Below are positions 2,553 through 50,634 of a DNA stretch of 64,000 nt, piece after piece (the stretch's first letter is position 1; the number at the start of each line of letters is the position of its first letter). Origin of the DNA: a virus (Duplodnaviria; Caudoviricetes). The DNA lies in IMG/VR virus record IMGVR_UViG_3300028591_000070, positions 160,001 to 224,000 of that record. One strand, written 5' to 3'. Below the pieces are notes generated by a model, which was not told where the DNA came from, did no database searches, and was given only the letters and a program-made list of their open reading frames with translations. A program made the translations under genes and the position numbers.

Positions 2553-2576
2553 AAAGCCACTCAATTGAGTGGCTTT
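2553..2576. terminator. bidirectional intrinsic terminator between + genes and tRNA operon 1
   Basis: AAAGCCACTC-AATT-GAGTGGCTTT hairpin flanked by A and T tracts. Confidence 0.85.
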
Positions 2577-2595: not shown

Positions 2596-2684
2596 TTCTG
2601 AGGGCGGGATTCGAACCTGCACGACTCGGGTATGAGTCACCAGAATCAAAATCTGGGGAGATACCAATTACTCTTTACCTCAGA
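2596..2684 (-). tRNA. tRNA-Gln(TTG) with atypical long variable arm
   Basis: TCTGAGG/CCTCAGA acceptor, CCAGA-TTTTGAT-TCTGG anticodon arm, GACTC/GAGTC variable hairpin, TTCGAAT T loop. Confidence 0.8.
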
Positions 2685-2691
2685 GTGAAGA

Positions 2692-2776
2692 CGGATAAGG
2701 TGAGATTCGAACTCACGGAAAGTTTCCAATCACTTCCTTAGCAGGGAAGCCACATAAACCACTCGTGCACTTATCC
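2692..2776 (-). tRNA. tRNA-Ser(GCT)
   Basis: CTTCC-CTGCTAA-GGAAG, long variable arm, G73. Confidence 0.9.
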
Positions 2777-2786
2777 ATAATAAAAT

Positions 2787-2869
2787 TAGGAGCGGTTGGA
2801 TTTGAACCAACATCCACCAGTTAGACGCATTATACTGGACGGTTTATAAGACCGCGCTCATACGCTCCT
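2787..2869 (-). tRNA. tRNA-Ile(TAT), no D arm, long variable region
   Basis: AGGAGCG/CGCTCCT acceptor; only TATGAGC before GCGGT-CTTATAA-ACCGT; T arm GTTGG-TTCAAAT-CCAAC. Confidence 0.7.
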
Positions 2870-2876
2870 ATGGTAG

Positions 2877-2944
2877 TTGGCTACAAGCGAGTCGGACGCT
2901 TCGAACTAGCCTTATGAGAGCCAGTTGGCAAACCTGCGTAACCA
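2877..2944 (-). tRNA. tRNA-Met/Ile2(CAT) with reduced D arm
   Basis: TGGTTAC/GTAGCCA acceptor, CTGGCT-CTCATAA-GGCTAG, T loop TCCGACT. Confidence 0.65.
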
Positions 2945-2951
2945 AAGAAAA

Positions 2952-3110
2952 ATAGCTAGTTCAACATCATTCTGCAGGGTCACTAGCCTTGTTGTCACGT
3001 GGTTTTTTCCTTTATTGGAATGTGATACTTGCTTTCATATCATCTTTTCAGGTCGCAAACCTTCCATAAAGTAAGACAACGTTCTGCACTCCGGAACTTC
3101 CCCAGAATTT
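2952..3110 (-). ncRNA. unknown structured ncRNA inside tRNA operon 1
   Basis: Nested inverted repeats (AGTTC/GAACT, TGCAG/CTGCA, GTTGTC/GACAAC), no ORF. Confidence 0.5.
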
Positions 3111-3183
3111 TTCTAGCGGTAGGAGTCGGACCCACACAAGCTTGATCCAGAGTCAAGAGCACTACCTATTATGCTACGCTAGA
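3111..3183 (-). tRNA. tRNA-Gln(CTG)
   Basis: CTTGA-CTCTGGA-TCAAG; T loop variant TCCGACT. Confidence 0.85.
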
Positions 3184-3184
3184 G

Positions 3185-3258
3185 TCGGCAAGATGGGACT
3201 CGAACCCATAAAATTCACATTTTGAGTGTGACACGTATTCCAATTCCGTCACTCACCG
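3185..3258 (-). tRNA. tRNA-Leu(CAA), short variable loop
   Basis: TCACA-CTCAAAA-TGTGA; Leu-type D loop; no long variable arm. Confidence 0.85.
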
Positions 3259-3264
3259 AAAACA

Positions 3265-3393
3265 AAAAGAAATAAGAATAAGCAAAAGAGTTCTGTGGGA
3301 CTTGAACCCACAAGCCATAAGGCGTTTGATTTGCGATCAAAATGAGTATACCAATTTCTCGAAGTAACTCTTTCAAACTGCATTATTTCTTTT
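3265..3393 (-). ncRNA. YrlA-like Y RNA 1 (non-permuted tRNA-like D/anticodon/variable/T insert)
   Basis: Outer stem AAGAAATAA/TTATTTCTT, TGCAG, AAAGAGT-TACTTCG...ACTCTTT; insert with TTTGA-TCGCAAA-TCAAA and GTTCAAGTCC. Confidence 0.75.
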
Positions 3394-3397
3394 ATAA

Positions 3398-3479
3398 TGG
3401 GCCTGGAGAGATTCGAACTCTCAATCCTTTCGGCGCCTGCCCCTTAAACAGGTGTGCATACCAATTCCACCACAGACCC
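3398..3479 (-). tRNA. tRNA-Leu(AAG)
   Basis: CCTGT-TTAAGGG-GCAGG, long variable arm. Confidence 0.85.
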
Positions 3480-3487
3480 AAATAAAG

Positions 3488-3569
3488 TCGACCAGGAGGG
3501 ATTTGAACCCTCAATCCTTACGGCGTCCGATCTTAAGTCGGATGTGCATTCCAGTTCCACCACTGGTCG
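3488..3569 (-). tRNA. tRNA-Leu(TAA)
   Basis: TCCGA-CTTAAGA-TCGGA, long variable arm. Confidence 0.9.
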
Positions 3570-3576
3570 ATAAATA

Positions 3577-3647
3577 TGTGCTGGAGGGGAGTTGAACCCC
3601 CATGTGAAGAACCACAATCTTCCGTCCTACCGTTGAACGACCAGTAC
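3577..3647 (-). tRNA. tRNA-His(GTG)
   Basis: GAAGA-TTGTGGT-TCTTC. Confidence 0.85.
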
Positions 3648-3649
3648 AG

Positions 3650-3722
3650 TCCCGCTGAGAAGATTTGAACTTCCACTTTATAGATTCTAAGTCTACTGCC
3701 TCTGCCGTTGGGCTACAGCGGG
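3650..3722 (-). tRNA. tRNA-Leu(TAG), short variable loop
   Basis: GTAGA-CTTAGAA-TCTAT; CCCGCTG/CAGCGGG acceptor. Confidence 0.85.
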
Positions 3723-3731
3723 AAAATAAAG

Positions 3732-3804
3732 TGTGAATGGTTGGAATCGAACCAACGACACGAAAATTTTCGGTCTTCTGCTCCACCTACTGAGCCACAT
3801 CCAC
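3732..3804 (-). tRNA. tRNA-Phe(GAA)
   Basis: GAAGA-CCGAAAA-TTTTC (C33). Confidence 0.85.
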
Positions 3805-3811
3805 ATAAGAG

Positions 3812-3882
3812 CCCGGAGACAGGGAGTCGAACCCCAACTTTTGGATCTTCAGTCCAAAGCACTTCCGTTATGCAACCTCCGG
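3812..3882 (-). tRNA. tRNA-Phe(GAA), divergent body
   Basis: TTGGA-CTGAAGA-TCCAA; CCGGAGG/TCTCCGG acceptor. Confidence 0.8.
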
Positions 3883-3916
3883 AAAATAAAAAACCCTCTC
3901 GATTTTTTCGAGAGGG
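3883..3916 (-). terminator. attenuator terminator of tRNA operon 1
   Basis: CCCTCTCGA-AAAAA-TCGAGAGGG followed by TTTTTTATTTT, directly 5' of the first tRNA. Confidence 0.9.
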
Positions 3917-3960
3917 CTCTATAAAAATTAAACTTATTATGAATCTATCACATATCAAAT

Positions 3961-4068
3961 CTAATTTCTATAAAGTCCTCCACCGAATAGGAGTATAAAC
4001 ATTTGCTGTAAAAACAAATGTAACTGGCTGAGAAAACTAAACTGATGTAAACTCATTGTATTGTTCAT
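3961..4068 (-). CDS. leader peptide 1 MNNTMSLHQFSFLSQLHLFLQQMFILLFGGGLYRN (attenuator of tRNA operon 1)
   Basis: AAGGAG SD; codons 5-28 are all M/S/L/H/Q/F/I, the tRNAs downstream; 3' end complementary to terminator 5' arm. Confidence 0.88.
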   Translation of the reverse strand: MNNTMSLHQFSFLSQLHLFLQQMFILLFGGGLYRN

Positions 4069-4101
4069 ACCTATACTCCTTTTATATTAAATTTTATAAT
4101 T

Positions 4102-4146
4102 TAATTAGTACAGTCACTAAAAGTAACTTACATATTTTATATTAAC
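4102..4146 (-). promoter_or_regulatory. tandem promoter motifs GTTAATAT and TGTACTAATTA upstream of leader 1
   Basis: Same pair with similar spacing at 9262-9303 and 23438-23481. Confidence 0.65.
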
Positions 4147-7527: not shown

Positions 7528-8106
7528 TTATATCCTTCCAGGTCTAAAACCTTCAGGACATTCTTTTGCTTTTATATTAATTTCTCCATTTGTATACCAA
7601 TGAGTACCAAATTGAGAATTTTTAGATCCTTTTTGATGTTCACTGTTTGTTAAACCAATTTTTCTTTTGGTTTCTTCTGAATGATGTTTACCAGTGAAAG
7701 TATCGTGTTTTTTCCAACCACAATTCTTAAAAAGATCTGGATGTTTTTCTCTTGTAGACTTCCAAGTTTTAGACATCTTAGAATAGTCTATAAACTTTGA
7801 AGTATCTCCTCCATCACCACCTTTAGCAAGATTATATTCTGCTTTACCAATAAGCTTTTGGCAAGCTATCATACATCTTTCAAAGCGATTAATTTGTTCT
7901 TTTGAGAAGAAACCAGAAACAAGAATTCTTTTTTTAAAAGACTTTTTTCCATATTTCTGATATGCTTCTCTAAGAATAGAACCAGAACCCATATATGTAT
8001 CAGATGTAATTGTACGATCTTTACGCACAGTATGCTGACCTATATAAGTTTTTCCATTCGTTAAATTTGTAATTTCATAAATATATCTTATTCGTAATTC
8101 ACTCAT
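7528..8106 (-). CDS. free-standing GIY-YIG homing endonuclease (Seg-like, NUMOD3)
   Basis: YIYEITNLTNGKTYIGQH, YMGSG, EYNL..GG, GKHHSEETKRKI. Confidence 0.92.
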   Translation of the reverse strand: MSELRIRYIYEITNLTNGKTYIGQHTVRKDRTITSDTYMGSGSILREAYQKYGKKSFKKRILVSGFFSKEQINRFERCMIACQKLIGKAEYNLAKGGDGGDTSKFIDYSKMSKTWKSTREKHPDLFKNCGWKKHDTFTGKHHSEETKRKIGLTNSEHQKGSKNSQFGTHWYTNGEINIKAKECPEGFRPGRI

Positions 8107-9023: not shown

Positions 9024-9030
9024 ATATAAA

Positions 9031-9062
9031 ATAAAAAAGGTCTTTCATTTCTGAAAGACCTT
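9031..9062 (-). terminator. attenuator terminator of tRNA operon 2
   Basis: AAGGTCTTTCA-GAAA-TGAAAGACC followed by TTTTTT, just 5' of the first tRNA. Confidence 0.9.
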
Positions 9063-9090
9063 AAGTAAATCTATAAAAAAACTTATAACC

Positions 9091-9228
9091 TTACTTAAAG
9101 TCTTTCTCCTTTTTACCGGCAATAACCCATTTAGAAGAACAAGGCACAATACGAGGGGCAACTGCTTTCGCAGACGCAATAGAAGAGGCACAAATAATTG
9201 AACGACCGATAATTCCATTCTCTACCAT
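9091..9228 (-). CDS. leader peptide 2 MVENGIIGRSIICASSIASAKAVAPRIVPCSSKWVIAGKKEKDFK (attenuator of tRNA operon 2)
   Basis: AAGGAG SD; codons 5-40 are all G/I/R/S/C/A/K/V/P/W, the tRNAs downstream; 17-nt complement to terminator 5' arm. Confidence 0.9.
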   Translation of the reverse strand: MVENGIIGRSIICASSIASAKAVAPRIVPCSSKWVIAGKKEKDFK

Positions 9229-9342
9229 AATCTTATTCTCCTTTATATTAAGTTTATACTATAATTAGTACAGTTACCAAAAATAACTTAATAAAATATT
9301 AACATTGTTTTTAGTATTTTATTAAATTATCTTCAAAAAAGA

Positions 9343-10225
9343 AAGCTGAGATTTATTGACTTTCCTCTGCGTCCATCTTCATCACTTTCGCAACTTAACC
9401 ACACTTTCATTTCTGAAAGTAGAACGCATAGCGAATAACTTAAAGGTGTTATCTACCTACTACAATAAGACTAATAATTTCATTTTTCATCCCTAGCGGC
9501 TTGCGGCCTAAGAAGCTTGCGGGCTCCTACCAGTTGATTACTTCAATCCATTCTTGACTTTCCTTGCGGTACTCACCAAGTCAACATATTACAGTTGAAT
9601 AACGCTATTTTCATCTTATCGTGACCAACACTTTTGCTTATCATGGCACAAAATGCTGGACTTGAACCAGCCACATTTAGATTAATAGTCTAACGCTCTA
9701 TCCTACTGAGCTAATTCTGTAATTATCGGTGAACTTCCTTGGGAGACGAGGTTGACCTTAATACCATGGCACCTTTTGAGTGCTTTAGGTAAATCGCCTC
9801 TCTTTTTTCGTCTGCTAAACTACTCAATCTAATAAAGTCAACATCTCTCACTTTCGCTTAAGCGTCAACATAATTCGTTATCATCTCACTCAGAATTTTG
9901 CATGTTCTTATTAGATGATATACATATCCCATATGTAAGCTTTCGACCCACATTCTTTTCAATCTTGTCTTTTAGACTTGATCTAAGCTCGTTGTTCAAC
10001 CGAGCAATACCACTGCAAACCTCAGCATTTGCCATCAATCTGCGCCATAGTATCTTGAATATGTAGTTTTCGTATGAAGTGATAAATCACCGCTGCACCT
10101 TTACGAATGCAACTTTCGCCGCTTATGAATTCACGGTTTATTCTAACGACTAGAAACCAGCCGGTGAACCCGAAGGTTCGATTAAATTACTGAGGATTGA
10201 ACCTCTATAACCTTGTAGTTAAGTA
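9343..10225 (-). ncRNA. large ornate ncRNA, probable GOLLD RNA
   Basis: ~880 nt ORF-free, many GNRA-capped hairpins (CCGCAAGG, GCGAAAGT), embedded tRNA, phage tRNA-island context; family assignment from recall. Confidence 0.65.
9644..9720 (-). tRNA. tRNA-Asn(ATT) embedded in the GOLLD-like RNA
   Basis: ACAGAAT/ATTTTGT acceptor, TTAGA-CTATTAA-TCTAA, encoded GCCA end. Confidence 0.8.
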
Positions 10226-10269: not shown

Positions 10270-10408
10270 AGATTGAGAATTTTGTGAAAAAGTATTTTTA
10301 CGGCGTGCTAACCAACTACACTAAAGCTCCCATAAACGGAGCTTACAGGATTCGAACCTGTGATACCGGCGTGATAGGCGAAGTAACTTTTTCGATCTGC
10401 ATCAATCT
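10270..10408 (-). ncRNA. YrlA-like Y RNA 4 (circularly permuted tRNA-Asp-like module)
   Basis: TGCAG..AAAAAGTTACTTCG; order anticodon remnant, T arm, closed acceptor stem, D arm. Confidence 0.82.
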
Positions 10409-12813: not shown

Positions 12814-14499
12814 TTATTGCTGATTTACAGCATGTCTACCAGCTTTCTTGGCCTGTTTTTCCTGGTCTTTCTGAGCTTCGATAGCATCCCACTGCTTGAT
12901 ATAAGCGTCAGCGAATAATGCTTCTTTTCCTGTCCAACCATACAAGAATGCTGTACGGTAGCTCATTTCTGGAATAAGAACATTATCATATCCAGCTGTT
13001 TGACAGCTAAATACATTTACCTTTGGATTTACCTTTTTGCGATATTCCTGAATAAGTGCATAAACATTGATCATATGACCCTTACATCTGAAGCTTCTGT
13101 AGTCATCATCATTAAGACCATATAATCCACCTGTTCCTGCCTGCTGGTCTGAGAAAATGAAAATATTATCATAAACTTCTTTCTTTGCAATTGCATCTTT
13201 GAAGAATAACCAAATACCATTCTCAGTACCACCACCTACATCGTTATCTCCTCTGCTTGATAAAAGCTTTGTCTGAGCAAGAGCACCATTTCTCTTAGAA
13301 ACTGGAGATGTAATAAGTCTGTCACCAAATTTACCAACATAACCTTCATCTGAAGCTTTTGCAATTAAAATTGAAGACAAGTTGTCAATATCAGCAATAG
13401 TAGTCCTTCCATATTCAGAAGTAAATCCATGCCATGCAGAACCTGAGTTGTCAGAAAGAACCATTGTCTTTCCCTTCAACTTTGGTAAGTTTTCAATTGC
13501 AATGTCCATACACTCTTCAAGAGCATCAAGAATTAAAGTCTGGTGATTGATACCTGAAGCCTCTTCAATCATCTGATATGCATTCCAATATCTGAATGGG
13601 AACTGCTTACCTTTAAGGACTCCACCTTTCAAATCTTCCAAAACTTTCTTACAGAATTCTGTGTCTTTTACATCTGTGAAGATGTTTCTCAAGTTGCGTA
13701 AAAGAGCCATGTGCTGCATACAGCCTGACTCATAGATTTCACGCCAACCCATTCCAGCAGAGCGTTTCTGTTCCCAAGTTTCCCTGTCTTCAGTAACCTT
13801 TACTGTACCTGTCTGCATCAACTCATTCAAAACTGGTGAGTTTGCATGAGAAATACGAACACCATTGATCATACCAATTTCGTGGTTCTTGTATTTGTTA
13901 ACAGCATAAGCATCCAATGAGCTAAGTTTCTTAGCAATAGACTTTTTCAAGATTGTTGGAATCTTGTTTTTCTTACCACCATTAATATACATGTAATATG
14001 TAAGCTGAGTAAGTGGCTCATCTGCACGAGACATAACCAACTTTTCTACAGCTGCAAACTTTCCAGGATTTGCATTACAGAAATCAGCACGCTTTGGATG
14101 GATTGCTGCACGTACCATAATAACCTGTGGATTAAGGCGCATATTGTATGTTTTACGCAAATCAACTGCAAAGTCCAAAGTTCCGCCAAAGTCATAATCC
14201 AATGCCTTATCAATAGCTTCAGTAAATACCTCTGTTGTTGATTTTCCTGCACTAGCAGAGAAGATTGCATACATAGCTGGATCGGTAAATTCCTTTTGCC
14301 AAGAGAATTTTCCATCCTTTACATCTTTTCTGTAATAAGAAGCCTCACCAAAAATTGATGATGCTGAAATCAACTTGAGAGTATCAAGTGGATTTACTTT
14401 GTAAGAATCGCCACCCATAAAGTTTGTAACGATTTCATCTGGTCTAAGTTTATTCATCTCATTCATCTGAGATACTGCTTTAGCCATTTTCTTGCTCAT
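12814..14499 (-). CDS. rsr: Ro60/Rsr TROVE-domain RNA-binding protein with vWA domain
   Basis: NFMGG, MALLRNLRN, KQFPFRY, vWA MIDAS DNSGS, FIFSDQQ, GWT. Confidence 0.92.
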   Translation of the reverse strand: MSKKMAKAVSQMNEMNKLRPDEIVTNFMGGDSYKVNPLDTLKLISASSIFGEASYYRKDVKDGKFSWQKEFTDPAMYAIFSASAGKSTTEVFTEAIDKALDYDFGGTLDFAVDLRKTYNMRLNPQVIMVRAAIHPKRADFCNANPGKFAAVEKLVMSRADEPLTQLTYYMYINGGKKNKIPTILKKSIAKKLSSLDAYAVNKYKNHEIGMINGVRISHANSPVLNELMQTGTVKVTEDRETWEQKRSAGMGWREIYESGCMQHMALLRNLRNIFTDVKDTEFCKKVLEDLKGGVLKGKQFPFRYWNAYQMIEEASGINHQTLILDALEECMDIAIENLPKLKGKTMVLSDNSGSAWHGFTSEYGRTTIADIDNLSSILIAKASDEGYVGKFGDRLITSPVSKRNGALAQTKLLSSRGDNDVGGGTENGIWLFFKDAIAKKEVYDNIFIFSDQQAGTGGLYGLNDDDYRSFRCKGHMINVYALIQEYRKKVNPKVNVFSCQTAGYDNVLIPEMSYRTAFLYGWTGKEALFADAYIKQWDAIEAQKDQEKQAKKAGRHAVNQQ

Positions 14500-14718: not shown

Positions 14719-14800
14719 CACTTAAGAAATAATGAATGAGTTTAAATTTTACAATTATAAAGGCCAAATTGTGAAGTAACTCATTCGGCTGCATTAAGTA
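14719..14800 (-). ncRNA. YrlA-like Y RNA 7 (short)
   Basis: ACTTAA/TTAAGT, TGCAGC, GAATGAGTTACTTC...AACTCATTC. Confidence 0.75.
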
Positions 14801-15007: not shown

Positions 15008-15088
15008 TTTCATAAACTATAAAAATTCATGAAAGTCTCAAAAAGAGTTCTCGCTCTCACTTAAGTGAGGACCAATCACTTAAGCTAT

Positions 15089-15162
15089 TGGCGCTGACAG
15101 GGCTCGAACCTGCATAGAACTGTTTAGAAGACAGTTTGCACATCCAATTGGCACACAGCGTC
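15089..15162 (-). tRNA. tRNA-Arg(TCT)
   Basis: ACTGT-CTTCTAA-ACAGT. Confidence 0.88.
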
Positions 15163-15203
15163 ATATATGTTAATTAGTTTATATTAAAATATTAACATTC
15201 AAT

Positions 15204-15614
15204 TTATTCAGTTTCTTTAACACGACCTGAATTAAAAATAAGTAAAGCATCATCTAAGTTGCAATATACTTTACCATCAACTTTATGATGATCTGCATCT
15301 GTATAAATAACACCTATAATAGCATAATGCTCTTCAGTTTCATCTTTCCAAAAGTCATATTTAGAATTTGGATTATTTGGAAGTTGTACTAATATAAGCA
15401 TTCGAGAACTCATACATTTTGTCTGTAAAACAACTGCATCTTTAATATTAGGAATAATAGATTTTGCTTTTGTTGTTGATTCTACTTTTTCTTCAGGAGT
15501 TGGCTCATCAATTTCCATTTGTCCAATAGACCATGAATAAGGATCTTCTTTCTCCATACAAGAAGAAAATAGCACACCAATTAAACAAATAAATAAAACA
15601 AAATACTTTTTCAT
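15204..15614 (-). CDS. putative lipoprotein
   Basis: MKKYFVLFICLIGVLFSSC signal/lipobox; start moved to ATG 15614. Confidence 0.75.
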   Translation of the reverse strand: MKKYFVLFICLIGVLFSSCMEKEDPYSWSIGQMEIDEPTPEEKVESTTKAKSIIPNIKDAVVLQTKCMSSRMLILVQLPNNPNSKYDFWKDETEEHYAIIGVIYTDADHHKVDGKVYCNLDDALLIFNSGRVKETE

Positions 15615-15615
15615 C

Positions 15616-15708
15616 CTAATCCTCAAGAGAAGCAAGTCCTAGCATTACAGATACAGCAACAACACCTACAATTAAAACTACTGCAATTACGCCTAACAAT
15701 ACTTTCAT
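15616..15708 (-). CDS. 30-aa single-TM protein
   Basis: GGAG SD; MKVLLGVIAVVLIVGVVAVSVMLGLASLED. Confidence 0.6.
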   Translation of the reverse strand: MKVLLGVIAVVLIVGVVAVSVMLGLASLED

Positions 15709-15722
15709 AATTACTCCACAAA

Positions 15723-15794
15723 AGGACCTATCCGGAATTGAACCGGACTCCACTCTTTAGGAGAGAGTTATTCTATCCGTTAAACTATAGGTCC
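15723..15794 (-). tRNA. tRNA-Arg(CCT)
   Basis: ACTCT-CTCCTAA-AGAGT. Confidence 0.9.
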
Positions 15795-23402: not shown

Positions 23403-23789
23403 TGAAAATCTACTCCTCCAAATTAAGTTTTATATTTTAATTAGTACAATCATTAAAAATGATTGATGTATTTATATTAACATACTTTTGAAAAGTATGC
23501 TAAATATTTTCAAAGAAAAGCTCCAAAACTTTCAACTGATTAGAAAGAAAAAAGCTTATGCTAAAGCTCGATCCAACTTGCTACAATAGGGTAAGCTAAG
23601 CTGATTGTCCATACTTTAGTTTCATTAATCGGGGATGCCCGATTAAAGGCAACCTTCCACCACCAAGTTTCATTAATGTTTCTGAGAAGGAAGCTTCAAA
23701 AAACCTGGAAACAAATACCTTATTTAGAATATACTCAAATCTTATAAAAAGTTCAAGTAATTTCTAATGTTTTTCCATTTACAAATAAA

Positions 23790-24155
23790 TGGACTATGTG
23801 GGAATCGAACCCACGTCCGAACTACTCAGCACTAATAGAACTTCTACTAGATGGTGTCTTAGGTTAGTTTTTCTTGGACCTAGCAATATCAACTATAGAA
23901 CTGTTCACTAAAATTGAAGTTGACACAAAATTAGCTACTCGACTCGGTTTAGTAACAACATTTAAGATACTGAGTCTTCCTACTCAAATGCCGTCGGAAA
24001 AGATTATACTCTTCCGATTAAGCTACAAGGCGAGCTGCCTTGCGAGCTGTTCTGCTTGTTCTGTTAGCATTTATTTGGTCTTTGACTAGTTTTTTCTCTA
24101 GGTTCTGCCATCATTCTACCAGCCATTTTATAGCCGTCGAAACCGGGAATAGCCC
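23790..24155 (-). ncRNA. ssrA: tmRNA; tag (A)ANRTSRTARKAARLVA
   Basis: GGGCTAT..TTCGAC 5' end, GACGTGGGTTCGATTCCCACATAGTCCA 3' end, G3:U70, resume context AAATAAAT-GCT. Confidence 0.92.
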
Positions 24156-49896: not shown

Positions 49897-50634
49897 ATGG
49901 CATTAACAAAGGAACAGCAATATAAACTCATTAATAGGTATCAGAGTGGGGATAAGACTGCTTTAGTTGAATTGATTAAAGCAAATGAAGGTCTTGTCTG
50001 GGATAGTGCCTATAAGTTTTACAATATCCATAAGTCACGTTTGAAGACTGTAGCAGAAGCAGCAGATTTTGCCCAAGAAGGGTATATTGGCCTTATTGAA
50101 GGTATTAGACGCTTTGATACAACAAAAGATGTTGAGTTTAGTACTTATGTTAGATTTTGGATTGAACAAAGATGTCGCCTTTTTGCAAGAGAATATTACT
50201 CTTCTGTAAAAATTTCTACTACAAAATATGAACAGCTTATGAGAAAAAAGATGTATGAATCTTTTGGAGTAGACTGCATCAAGTCATCTACTTTGGATGA
50301 AGTTGATAGAATGGCAAAGGTCTCAAGTCTTAATGTTATTATAGGTGACTCATATGACGAAATGATCGACCTTTTGGCAGATAATAATGCAGAAGACCCA
50401 CTAAATAAATGTGCGCAAGCATCAGAGCATGATTATTTGCAGCATCTATTTGATAAATATCTTACTGAAAGAGAGCAGCATATCATTAAACTTAGAACAA
50501 ACTGGGATAAGTGCATGGAAGATTTTGCTACTCTTCAAGAAATCGGTGATGATATGGGCATTACTCGTGAAAGAGTTCGCCAAATCGAAAACAAAGCATA
50601 TAAAAAGTTAAAGTCACATCTTAAAGATTACTAA
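49897..50634 (+). CDS. RNA polymerase sigma70-family factor
   Basis: LIKANEGLV, QEGYIGLIEGIRRFD, FSTYVRFWI, TLQEIG..ITRERVRQIE. Confidence 0.92.
   Translation: MALTKEQQYKLINRYQSGDKTALVELIKANEGLVWDSAYKFYNIHKSRLKTVAEAADFAQEGYIGLIEGIRRFDTTKDVEFSTYVRFWIEQRCRLFAREYYSSVKISTTKYEQLMRKKMYESFGVDCIKSSTLDEVDRMAKVSSLNVIIGDSYDEMIDLLADNNAEDPLNKCAQASEHDYLQHLFDKYLTEREQHIIKLRTNWDKCMEDFATLQEIGDDMGITRERVRQIENKAYKKLKSHLKDY

Follow-up and report, generated by a model that had tools for sequence, protein, structure and literature searches.

Our combined findings suggest that a block of tRNA genes in a large uncultured tailed phage (Caudoviricetes) is very likely under the control of a ribosome-dependent transcription attenuator providing feedback on tRNA supply. 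From its sequence organization, the phage probably makes the tRNAs of this block only when ribosomes decode the codons read by these tRNAs slowly. The element lies in a stretch of 64,000 nucleotides (hereafter the window; positions 160,001 to 224,000 of virus record IMGVR_UViG_3300028591_000070, which has 385,934 bases). An attenuator had been proposed at this place in an earlier note, and the codon match, geometry, conservation and covariation described below support that reading. The leader ORF and all other elements named in the note were found at their minus-strand positions, with the translation of 4068-3961 as given there.

The phage carries a T4 gp23-like capsid gene and a sigma factor (window about 49,900-50,600). 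No match to RNA polymerase beta was found in the phage genome, and thus the host polymerase is most likely used. Between 2.6 and 24 kb of the window there are 45 tRNA calls and one tmRNA, all on the minus strand. The bulk of the public runs with parts of this region are sheep and cattle gut samples, and the relatives are found in samples of the ruminant gut. No cultured phage was similar to the region beyond the tRNA cores, and the core DNA patterns of leader 1 had no match in viral and genome collections. The parts of the first unit, in order of transcription, and its two sister units are as follows.

4139..4146, minus strand: promoter-like motif GTTAATAT, putative phage promoter class 1
4102..4112, minus strand: promoter-like motif with core ACTAATT, putative promoter class 2; predicted start about 4097, by analogy
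4072..4080, minus strand: ribosome-binding site with AGGAG at 4080-4076; also the 5' strand of the SD-locking helix
3961..4068, minus strand: leader ORF of 35 codons, its frame intact in 9 related loci
3985..4056, minus strand: sensor run, codons 5-28 (Met, Ser AGY, Leu, His, Gln, Phe, Ile ATA)
3989..3997, minus strand: anti-SD strand, codons 24-27, a 9/9 complement of 4080-4072
3957..3981, minus strand: antiterminator 5' strand (codons 30-35, the stop codon and 4 nt beyond)
3911..3935, minus strand: antiterminator 3' strand, whose last 7 nt are the terminator 5' arm
3883..3917, minus strand: intrinsic terminator, stem 3917-3908/3902-3893, with a U-rich tail to 3883
2596..3882, minus strand: putatively gated tRNA block 1, 12 genes, the first at 3882 directly after the U tail
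2553..2576, both directions: two-way terminator closing block 1, a terminator-like site
9028..9272, minus strand: sister unit 2 (ORF 9228-9091), heading block 2 (9024-5967)
23243..23448, minus strand: sister unit 3 (ORF 23402-23301), heading block 3 (23239-21451)

Both promoter-like motifs are concentrated between genes: 57 of the 88 genome copies of GTTAATAT are intergenic (intergenic DNA makes up 12% of the genome), as are 67 of the 105 copies of the ACTAATT motif. GTTAATAT precedes all three leaders, and so does an identical 11-mer with the ACTAATT core. Across the genome, ACTAATT lies 5 nt ahead of the start codon in 39 genes and GTTAATAT 6-9 nt ahead in about 25, a spacing that suggests that many phage mRNAs may be leaderless. 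In contrast to these leaderless candidates, all three leader ORFs have a 5' leader and a strong ribosome-binding site.

The codons of leader 1 correspond to the tRNAs of the block behind it. Every one of codons 5-28 can be read by block 1 tRNAs, and over codons 2-27 the match is 23 of 26, compared with 23% expected from genome codon use (binomial p 2e-12, post hoc). The block runs Phe (two genes), Leu TAG, His, Leu TAA, Leu AAG, an uncertain tRNA-like element (3286-3371), Leu CAA, Gln CTG, an atypical CAT element, Ile TAT, Ser GCT and Gln TTG. The agreement extends to isoacceptors, as the earlier note had claimed for the Leu codons TTA, TTG, CTC and CTA and for CAG/CAA, AGT/AGC and ATA; all of these were confirmed in the leader, with cognate tRNAs downstream. 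Leu is encoded in codons 2-27 by TTA (three times), CTC (twice), TTG and CTA, with the rare CTC and CTA served by Leu AAG and Leu TAG. The Ser codons (AGT twice and AGC) are all AGY, a class that makes up 26% of genome Ser codons, and Ser GCT is in the block. The Gln codons are CAG and CAA, and both Gln genes are present; the sole Ile codon is ATA, and an Ile TAT gene was found at 2787-2869 (Rfam 34.8 bits). Sensing of Met would rest on the CAT element (about 2876-2944, in the stretch 2872-2946, minus strand). Neither ARAGORN nor Rfam called this element, but five relatives have it at 97-100% conservation, and its T arm shows one compensatory pair. The Cys call at 3286-3371 was excluded from the codon match because it reads GAA in relatives and belongs to a repeated Y-RNA-like class.

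Members of this class lie near 3286-3385, 10283-10405, 14720-14790, 18940-19060 and 21880-22000 of the window; their common stem ends in GTTACTTC, and tRNA-like inserts in some of them are called as tRNAs by ARAGORN. They accompany a TROVE/Ro60-like gene (window 12814-14499, minus strand). The region also holds a phage tmRNA gene (window 23790-24155, minus strand) with an unusual Arg-rich tag peptide, and a GIY-YIG-type homing endonuclease gene (window 7528-8106, minus strand) inserted within tRNA block 2; relatives have other insertions at varied block positions. A GOLLD-like large RNA (window 9343-10090, minus strand; Rfam 96 bits, under the gathering score of 150) has a tRNA-like domain embedded at 9647-9720. 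In three gut RNA runs, contigs of the GOLLD region (9551-10087) had a depth of 300-1800, compared with 1-40 for neighbouring DNA. The four metatranscriptome runs consist of assembled contigs, which do not show RNA ends. A contig of a related strain across the terminator (X3, 3810-4066) was set aside as RNA evidence, since it may derive from DNA and ends and levels cannot be read from it.

The end of the leader can pair with the sequence that leads into the terminator. The earlier note had described a 14-nt pairing that overlaps the terminator 5' arm, and this was found (3981-3968 with 3924-3911, 13 of 14 paired, with three G-U pairs and one A-C mismatch), although the helix is longer than the note had it: the antiterminator has 24 pairs, 3981-3957 with 3935-3911. 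Its pairing is stronger than that of 99.8% of genome windows (p 0.002; p 0.008 against shuffles), and the region as a whole folds with a z of -7.05, with 0 of 200 shuffles as stable. The terminator was computed at about -20 kcal/mol. Of 76 strong terminator-like sites in the genome, five are closely preceded by a short ORF with an SD, and strong leader-terminator pairing was found at three of these five, which are the three ahead of the tRNA blocks.

We then computed folds with the ribosome footprint masked. With the A site at codons 2-24, 87% of the terminator 5' arm was sequestered by upstream pairing, and with the A site at codons 25-36, 26-58%; with the A site at the stop codon, the full terminator folded. 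The end of the sensor run thus roughly coincides with the point at which the ribosome starts to cover the antiterminator. Naked RNA formed the SD helix and the antiterminator up to the terminator loop. Once the whole hairpin was made, the 9-pair G-C terminator core refolded at equilibrium and was favoured even without a ribosome. Antitermination would therefore have to be kinetic, and kinetic switching is usual for attenuators. No trp-type 1:2 protector hairpin was found in unit 1: the helix upstream of the antiterminator strand stops 8 nt short of it, at 3989. The antiterminator strand is unheld in naked RNA, and thus an untranslated leader should read through.

Taken together, these parts point to the following sequence of events. 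Transcription by the host RNA polymerase, probably directed by a phage sigma factor, would start about 30-65 nt ahead of the leader, and a ribosome would load on the leader and follow the polymerase. When Phe, Leu, His, Gln, Met, Ile-ATA and Ser-AGY codons are decoded at normal speed, the ribosome would be at codons 25-36 and cover the antiterminator 5' strand, so that the terminator would fold and transcription stop at about 3885. When decoding is slow at any point in codons 2-24, or when no ribosome has loaded, the 24-pair antiterminator would form first and hold 7-10 nt of the terminator 5' arm, and the polymerase would enter the tRNA block, the products of which would relieve the stall. 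Amino-acid limitation is not the only possible signal, since read-through should follow from any slow decoding, whether due to tRNA cleavage, a missing modification or absence of a ribosome.

The same layout occurs twice more in the window. Block 2 encodes tRNAs for Pro, Ser TGA, Ala, Gly GCC, Ile GAT, Val, Cys, Lys, Trp and Arg ACG, and leader 2 matches it at 33 of 36 codons (antiterminator p 0.0003, SD helix p 0.003). Block 3 encodes Asn, Tyr, Asp, Met, Thr, Glu and Gly TCC, and leader 3 matches it at 20 of 24 codons, with a borderline antiterminator (p 0.03-0.06). Each leader matched the two blocks that are not its own at 0-20% of codons. Leader 1 is limited to AGY Ser and ATA Ile, and leader 2 to TCN Ser, ATY Ile and CGT Arg. 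Jointly the three blocks serve all 20 amino acids; under generous wobble rules they cover 58 of the 61 sense codons, leaving AGA, AGG and CGG. Arg TCT and CCT tRNAs lie outside the three blocks (window 15088-15794, minus strand), AGA and AGG being nearly the sole codons left uncovered, and no terminator unit was seen ahead of them; in other phages (L061, L068, L080), a Glu/Arg leader appears to gate Glu and Arg TCT genes.

We found unit 1 in eight close loci at 93-95% identity, among which codons 5-28 show five distinct substitutions, all synonymous. In L019, a non-synonymous change of codon 34 turns an antiterminator G-U pair into A-U and improves the pairing, and in L107, whose leader is of the type of the distant phage L029, a non-synonymous change at codon 28 improves the antiterminator pairing. 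The 5' end is rebuilt in L105, with the SD helix kept; this locus is an exception in codon match, its leader 1 having an Arg CGT codon although no Arg tRNA was called in the block behind it.

A search with the TROVE protein led to L029 (TROVE 65% identical), which has all three units with diverged sequences and a leader 1 that is 55% identical to leader 1 here. The unit-1 antiterminator is in register in L029 with three double and five single compatible changes, the double changes all coming from this one distant lineage. Across a plain MAFFT alignment of seven sequences, 98% of cells in the antiterminator were paired, compared with at most 67% when the strands were slid. Leaders and blocks also differ in step between the two phages. 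Block 3 of L029 holds a tRNA-Ala gene that is 92% identical to the block-2 gene of our phage, its block 2 has no Ala or Gly gene, and codons for these two amino acids are likewise missing from its leader 2. Ala codons are present in leader 3 of L029 and missing from leader 3 here, the reverse of the arrangement of our phage for leaders 2 and 3. L021 and L108 seemed at first to lack tRNA-Ala, but inspection revealed atypical Ala genes in them; these TGC variants (L021:2690-2770 and L108:2163-2236) are missed by ARAGORN and Rfam, and their specificity fits the upstream leader.

The wider spread was assessed in 73 viral loci fetched with a TROVE alignment, 20 kb each. Several unrelated phages among them have a short ORF followed by a terminator and then a tRNA block. 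The leaders of L031, L061, L064, L068, L072/L073 and L080 match their own blocks, most with significant antiterminators; in L084 neither the codon match nor the pairing was significant. For eight unrelated units, the true leader-block assignment was the best of 40,320 permutations (p 2.5e-5), a value that is somewhat optimistic because block limits were set by hand after the data had been seen. Many TROVE phages with tRNA arrays lack such a unit in the fetched 20 kb, and thus the unit is not universal. When the TROVE bait was searched against the genome collection, the sole match was a Clostridia MAG contig (60%).

The SD-sequestering helix is a conserved design element. As the earlier note had observed, the Shine-Dalgarno segment at 4080-4072 is an exact 9-base complement of 3997-3989 within the leader, a match better than that of 99.2% of genome windows (p 0.008; p 0.009 against shuffles). 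Of the six units in our phage and L029 (three each), four have an SD helix above chance, namely units 1 and 2 of both phages, the letters of both strands differing between the helices (p 0.0015-0.008), whereas in unit 3 it is weak or not significant. The L029 equivalent of the unit 1 helix uses different letters on both strands (p 0.0015). Leaders of other phage groups that lack an SD mostly showed no significant helix of this kind. We consider it likely that the helix is under selection, and the case that it acts by limiting ribosome loading is evenly balanced. It would close once codons 24-27 have been made and are uncovered, and would then limit each transcript to about one ribosome and keep the released short RNA silent. 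Three compatible roles may be envisaged: one ribosome per transcript, a time limit on loading, and silencing of released RNA. Limitation of re-initiation, as put forward in the earlier note, corresponds to the first and third of these and is plausible for such a pairing, with other roles possible.

The conserved SD helix also bears on the alternative that we regard as very unlikely, though the least so of the rivals, that the unit is a general gauge of translation in which ribosome loading and pace are the main input, the SD helix is a timer and codon identity merely tunes the response. Without a protector, absence of translation alone predicts read-through under this alternative as well. It leaves unexplained, however, why codon choice is specific to the block at the level of isoacceptors and why Ala codons shift alongside the tRNA-Ala gene. 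A second alternative, a small peptide gene followed by a constitutive terminator, with tRNAs made through leak-through, a phage antiterminator protein or a promoter of their own, would account for the hydrophobic, conserved peptide of leader 1 and for the terminator core kept in the equilibrium fold. We judge it very unlikely, since peptides 2 and 3 differ in chemistry from peptide 1 despite the shared architecture, leader composition tracks the tRNA set and the antiterminator covaries; furthermore, the first tRNA directly follows the U tail, and neither promoter class has a motif between 4100 and 3850. Third, the leader could act as a stalling or sensing peptide, as in tnaC, or as a protein-binding RNA, so that a factor rather than decoding speed would set the switch. 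The Streptomyces ilvB and leuA leaders provide a precedent, being look-alikes that are not classical attenuators and in which codon changes had no effect (PMC1262725), and the phage encodes the Ro60-like RNA-binding protein nearby. Yet the three leaders share only their layout, with no common peptide or RNA motif, and the synonymous codon class follows the tRNA block, which makes a factor-dependent switch highly improbable. Chance, in the form of a short ORF and fortuitous pairing in AT-rich DNA, has a negligible probability: short ORFs and hairpins are common and the tests were picked after the data had been seen, but three units here, three in a distant phage and more in phages from an unrelated bait, together with the conservation, the cross-matching and the permutation result, already exclude it.

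An attenuator that senses decoding thus remains our preferred reading. In its predicted working, unit 1 is a multivalent leader-peptide attenuator, and it has the features of that mechanism that can be tested in a sequence. It shares with the E. coli trpL, pheL, hisL, thrL and ilvL attenuators a short leader, here putatively translated, with control codons, at which ribosome position would decide the outcome, and an antiterminator overlapping an intrinsic terminator (PMC4615214, PMC3082878). It differs from these classical attenuators in that its output is tRNA genes rather than enzymes, in a phage; that each leader has 7-10 specificities over 24-36 codons, specific to isoacceptors; and that three units divide nearly the whole code. 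By comparison, the specificities of thrL and ilvL are limited to two or three amino acids. With tRNA output and no protector, unit 1 is not of the four-segment trp/his/phe type. In trpL, pairing of the leader ribosome-binding site with a distal segment reportedly turns off translation. An untranslated trp leader terminates (PMC4615214), whereas that of the phage unit, lacking the 1:2 protector, should read through.

Among known uses, the attenuation of synthetase genes, for example pheST, comes closest (PMC1262725). The pheST (pheM) and Streptomyces trpS/leuS attenuators likewise act on the translation machinery through aminoacyl-tRNA synthetases (PMC1262725); there the output is the charging enzyme for one amino acid, and here it is the tRNAs themselves. 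T-box riboswitches, which control Firmicutes synthetase genes, also give terminator read-through at low tRNA charging, but bind uncharged tRNA directly and do not need translation. No T-box match was found here with Rfam, at the gathering score or in permissive searches, and the Rfam amino-acid leaders (His, Phe, Leu, Trp and Thr) did not reach their gathering thresholds (His_leader 20.6 of 49 bits, Phe_leader 20.5 of 55).

Phage tRNAs that replace host tRNAs cut or depleted in infection provide a possible context for the unit (PMC11464382, PMC10264068). These reports describe counter-defence by a phage tRNA array, with T5 tRNA-Lys acting against PARIS (PMC11464382), and by anticodon-loop variants in phage tRNAs (PMC10264068). 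The phage unit here would be a sensor for such use; term searches of PMC11464382 and PMC10264068 found no sensing or regulation of phage tRNA genes. No published report of leader-peptide attenuation of tRNA genes was found in the literature covered, outside of which most subscription papers lie.

On a broader reading, to which we give equal weight for and against, the three multivalent attenuators, with their 58 of 61 sense codons, would constitute a three-channel monitor of the code. Loss of decoding, including that caused by cleavage of host tRNAs by defence nucleases, would switch on the matching phage tRNA block only, and the SD-locking helix would provide a single-ribosome timing test for each transcript, with a default of ON if translation fails.

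For decades it has been debated whether phages carry tRNAs for codon compensation or for replacement of depleted host tRNAs (PMC10264068). A sensor wired to tRNA genes would provide phage tRNAs on demand when decoding fails, and makes this question testable. The attenuator units would also explain the grouping of these tRNA genes, and leader codons may serve as an annotation aid for atypical phage tRNAs, such as the CAT element and the Ala genes missed by standard tools. Attenuation would thus be extended to a closed feedback loop on tRNA supply, and each leader would be a reporter of the tRNA pools that collapse in infection.
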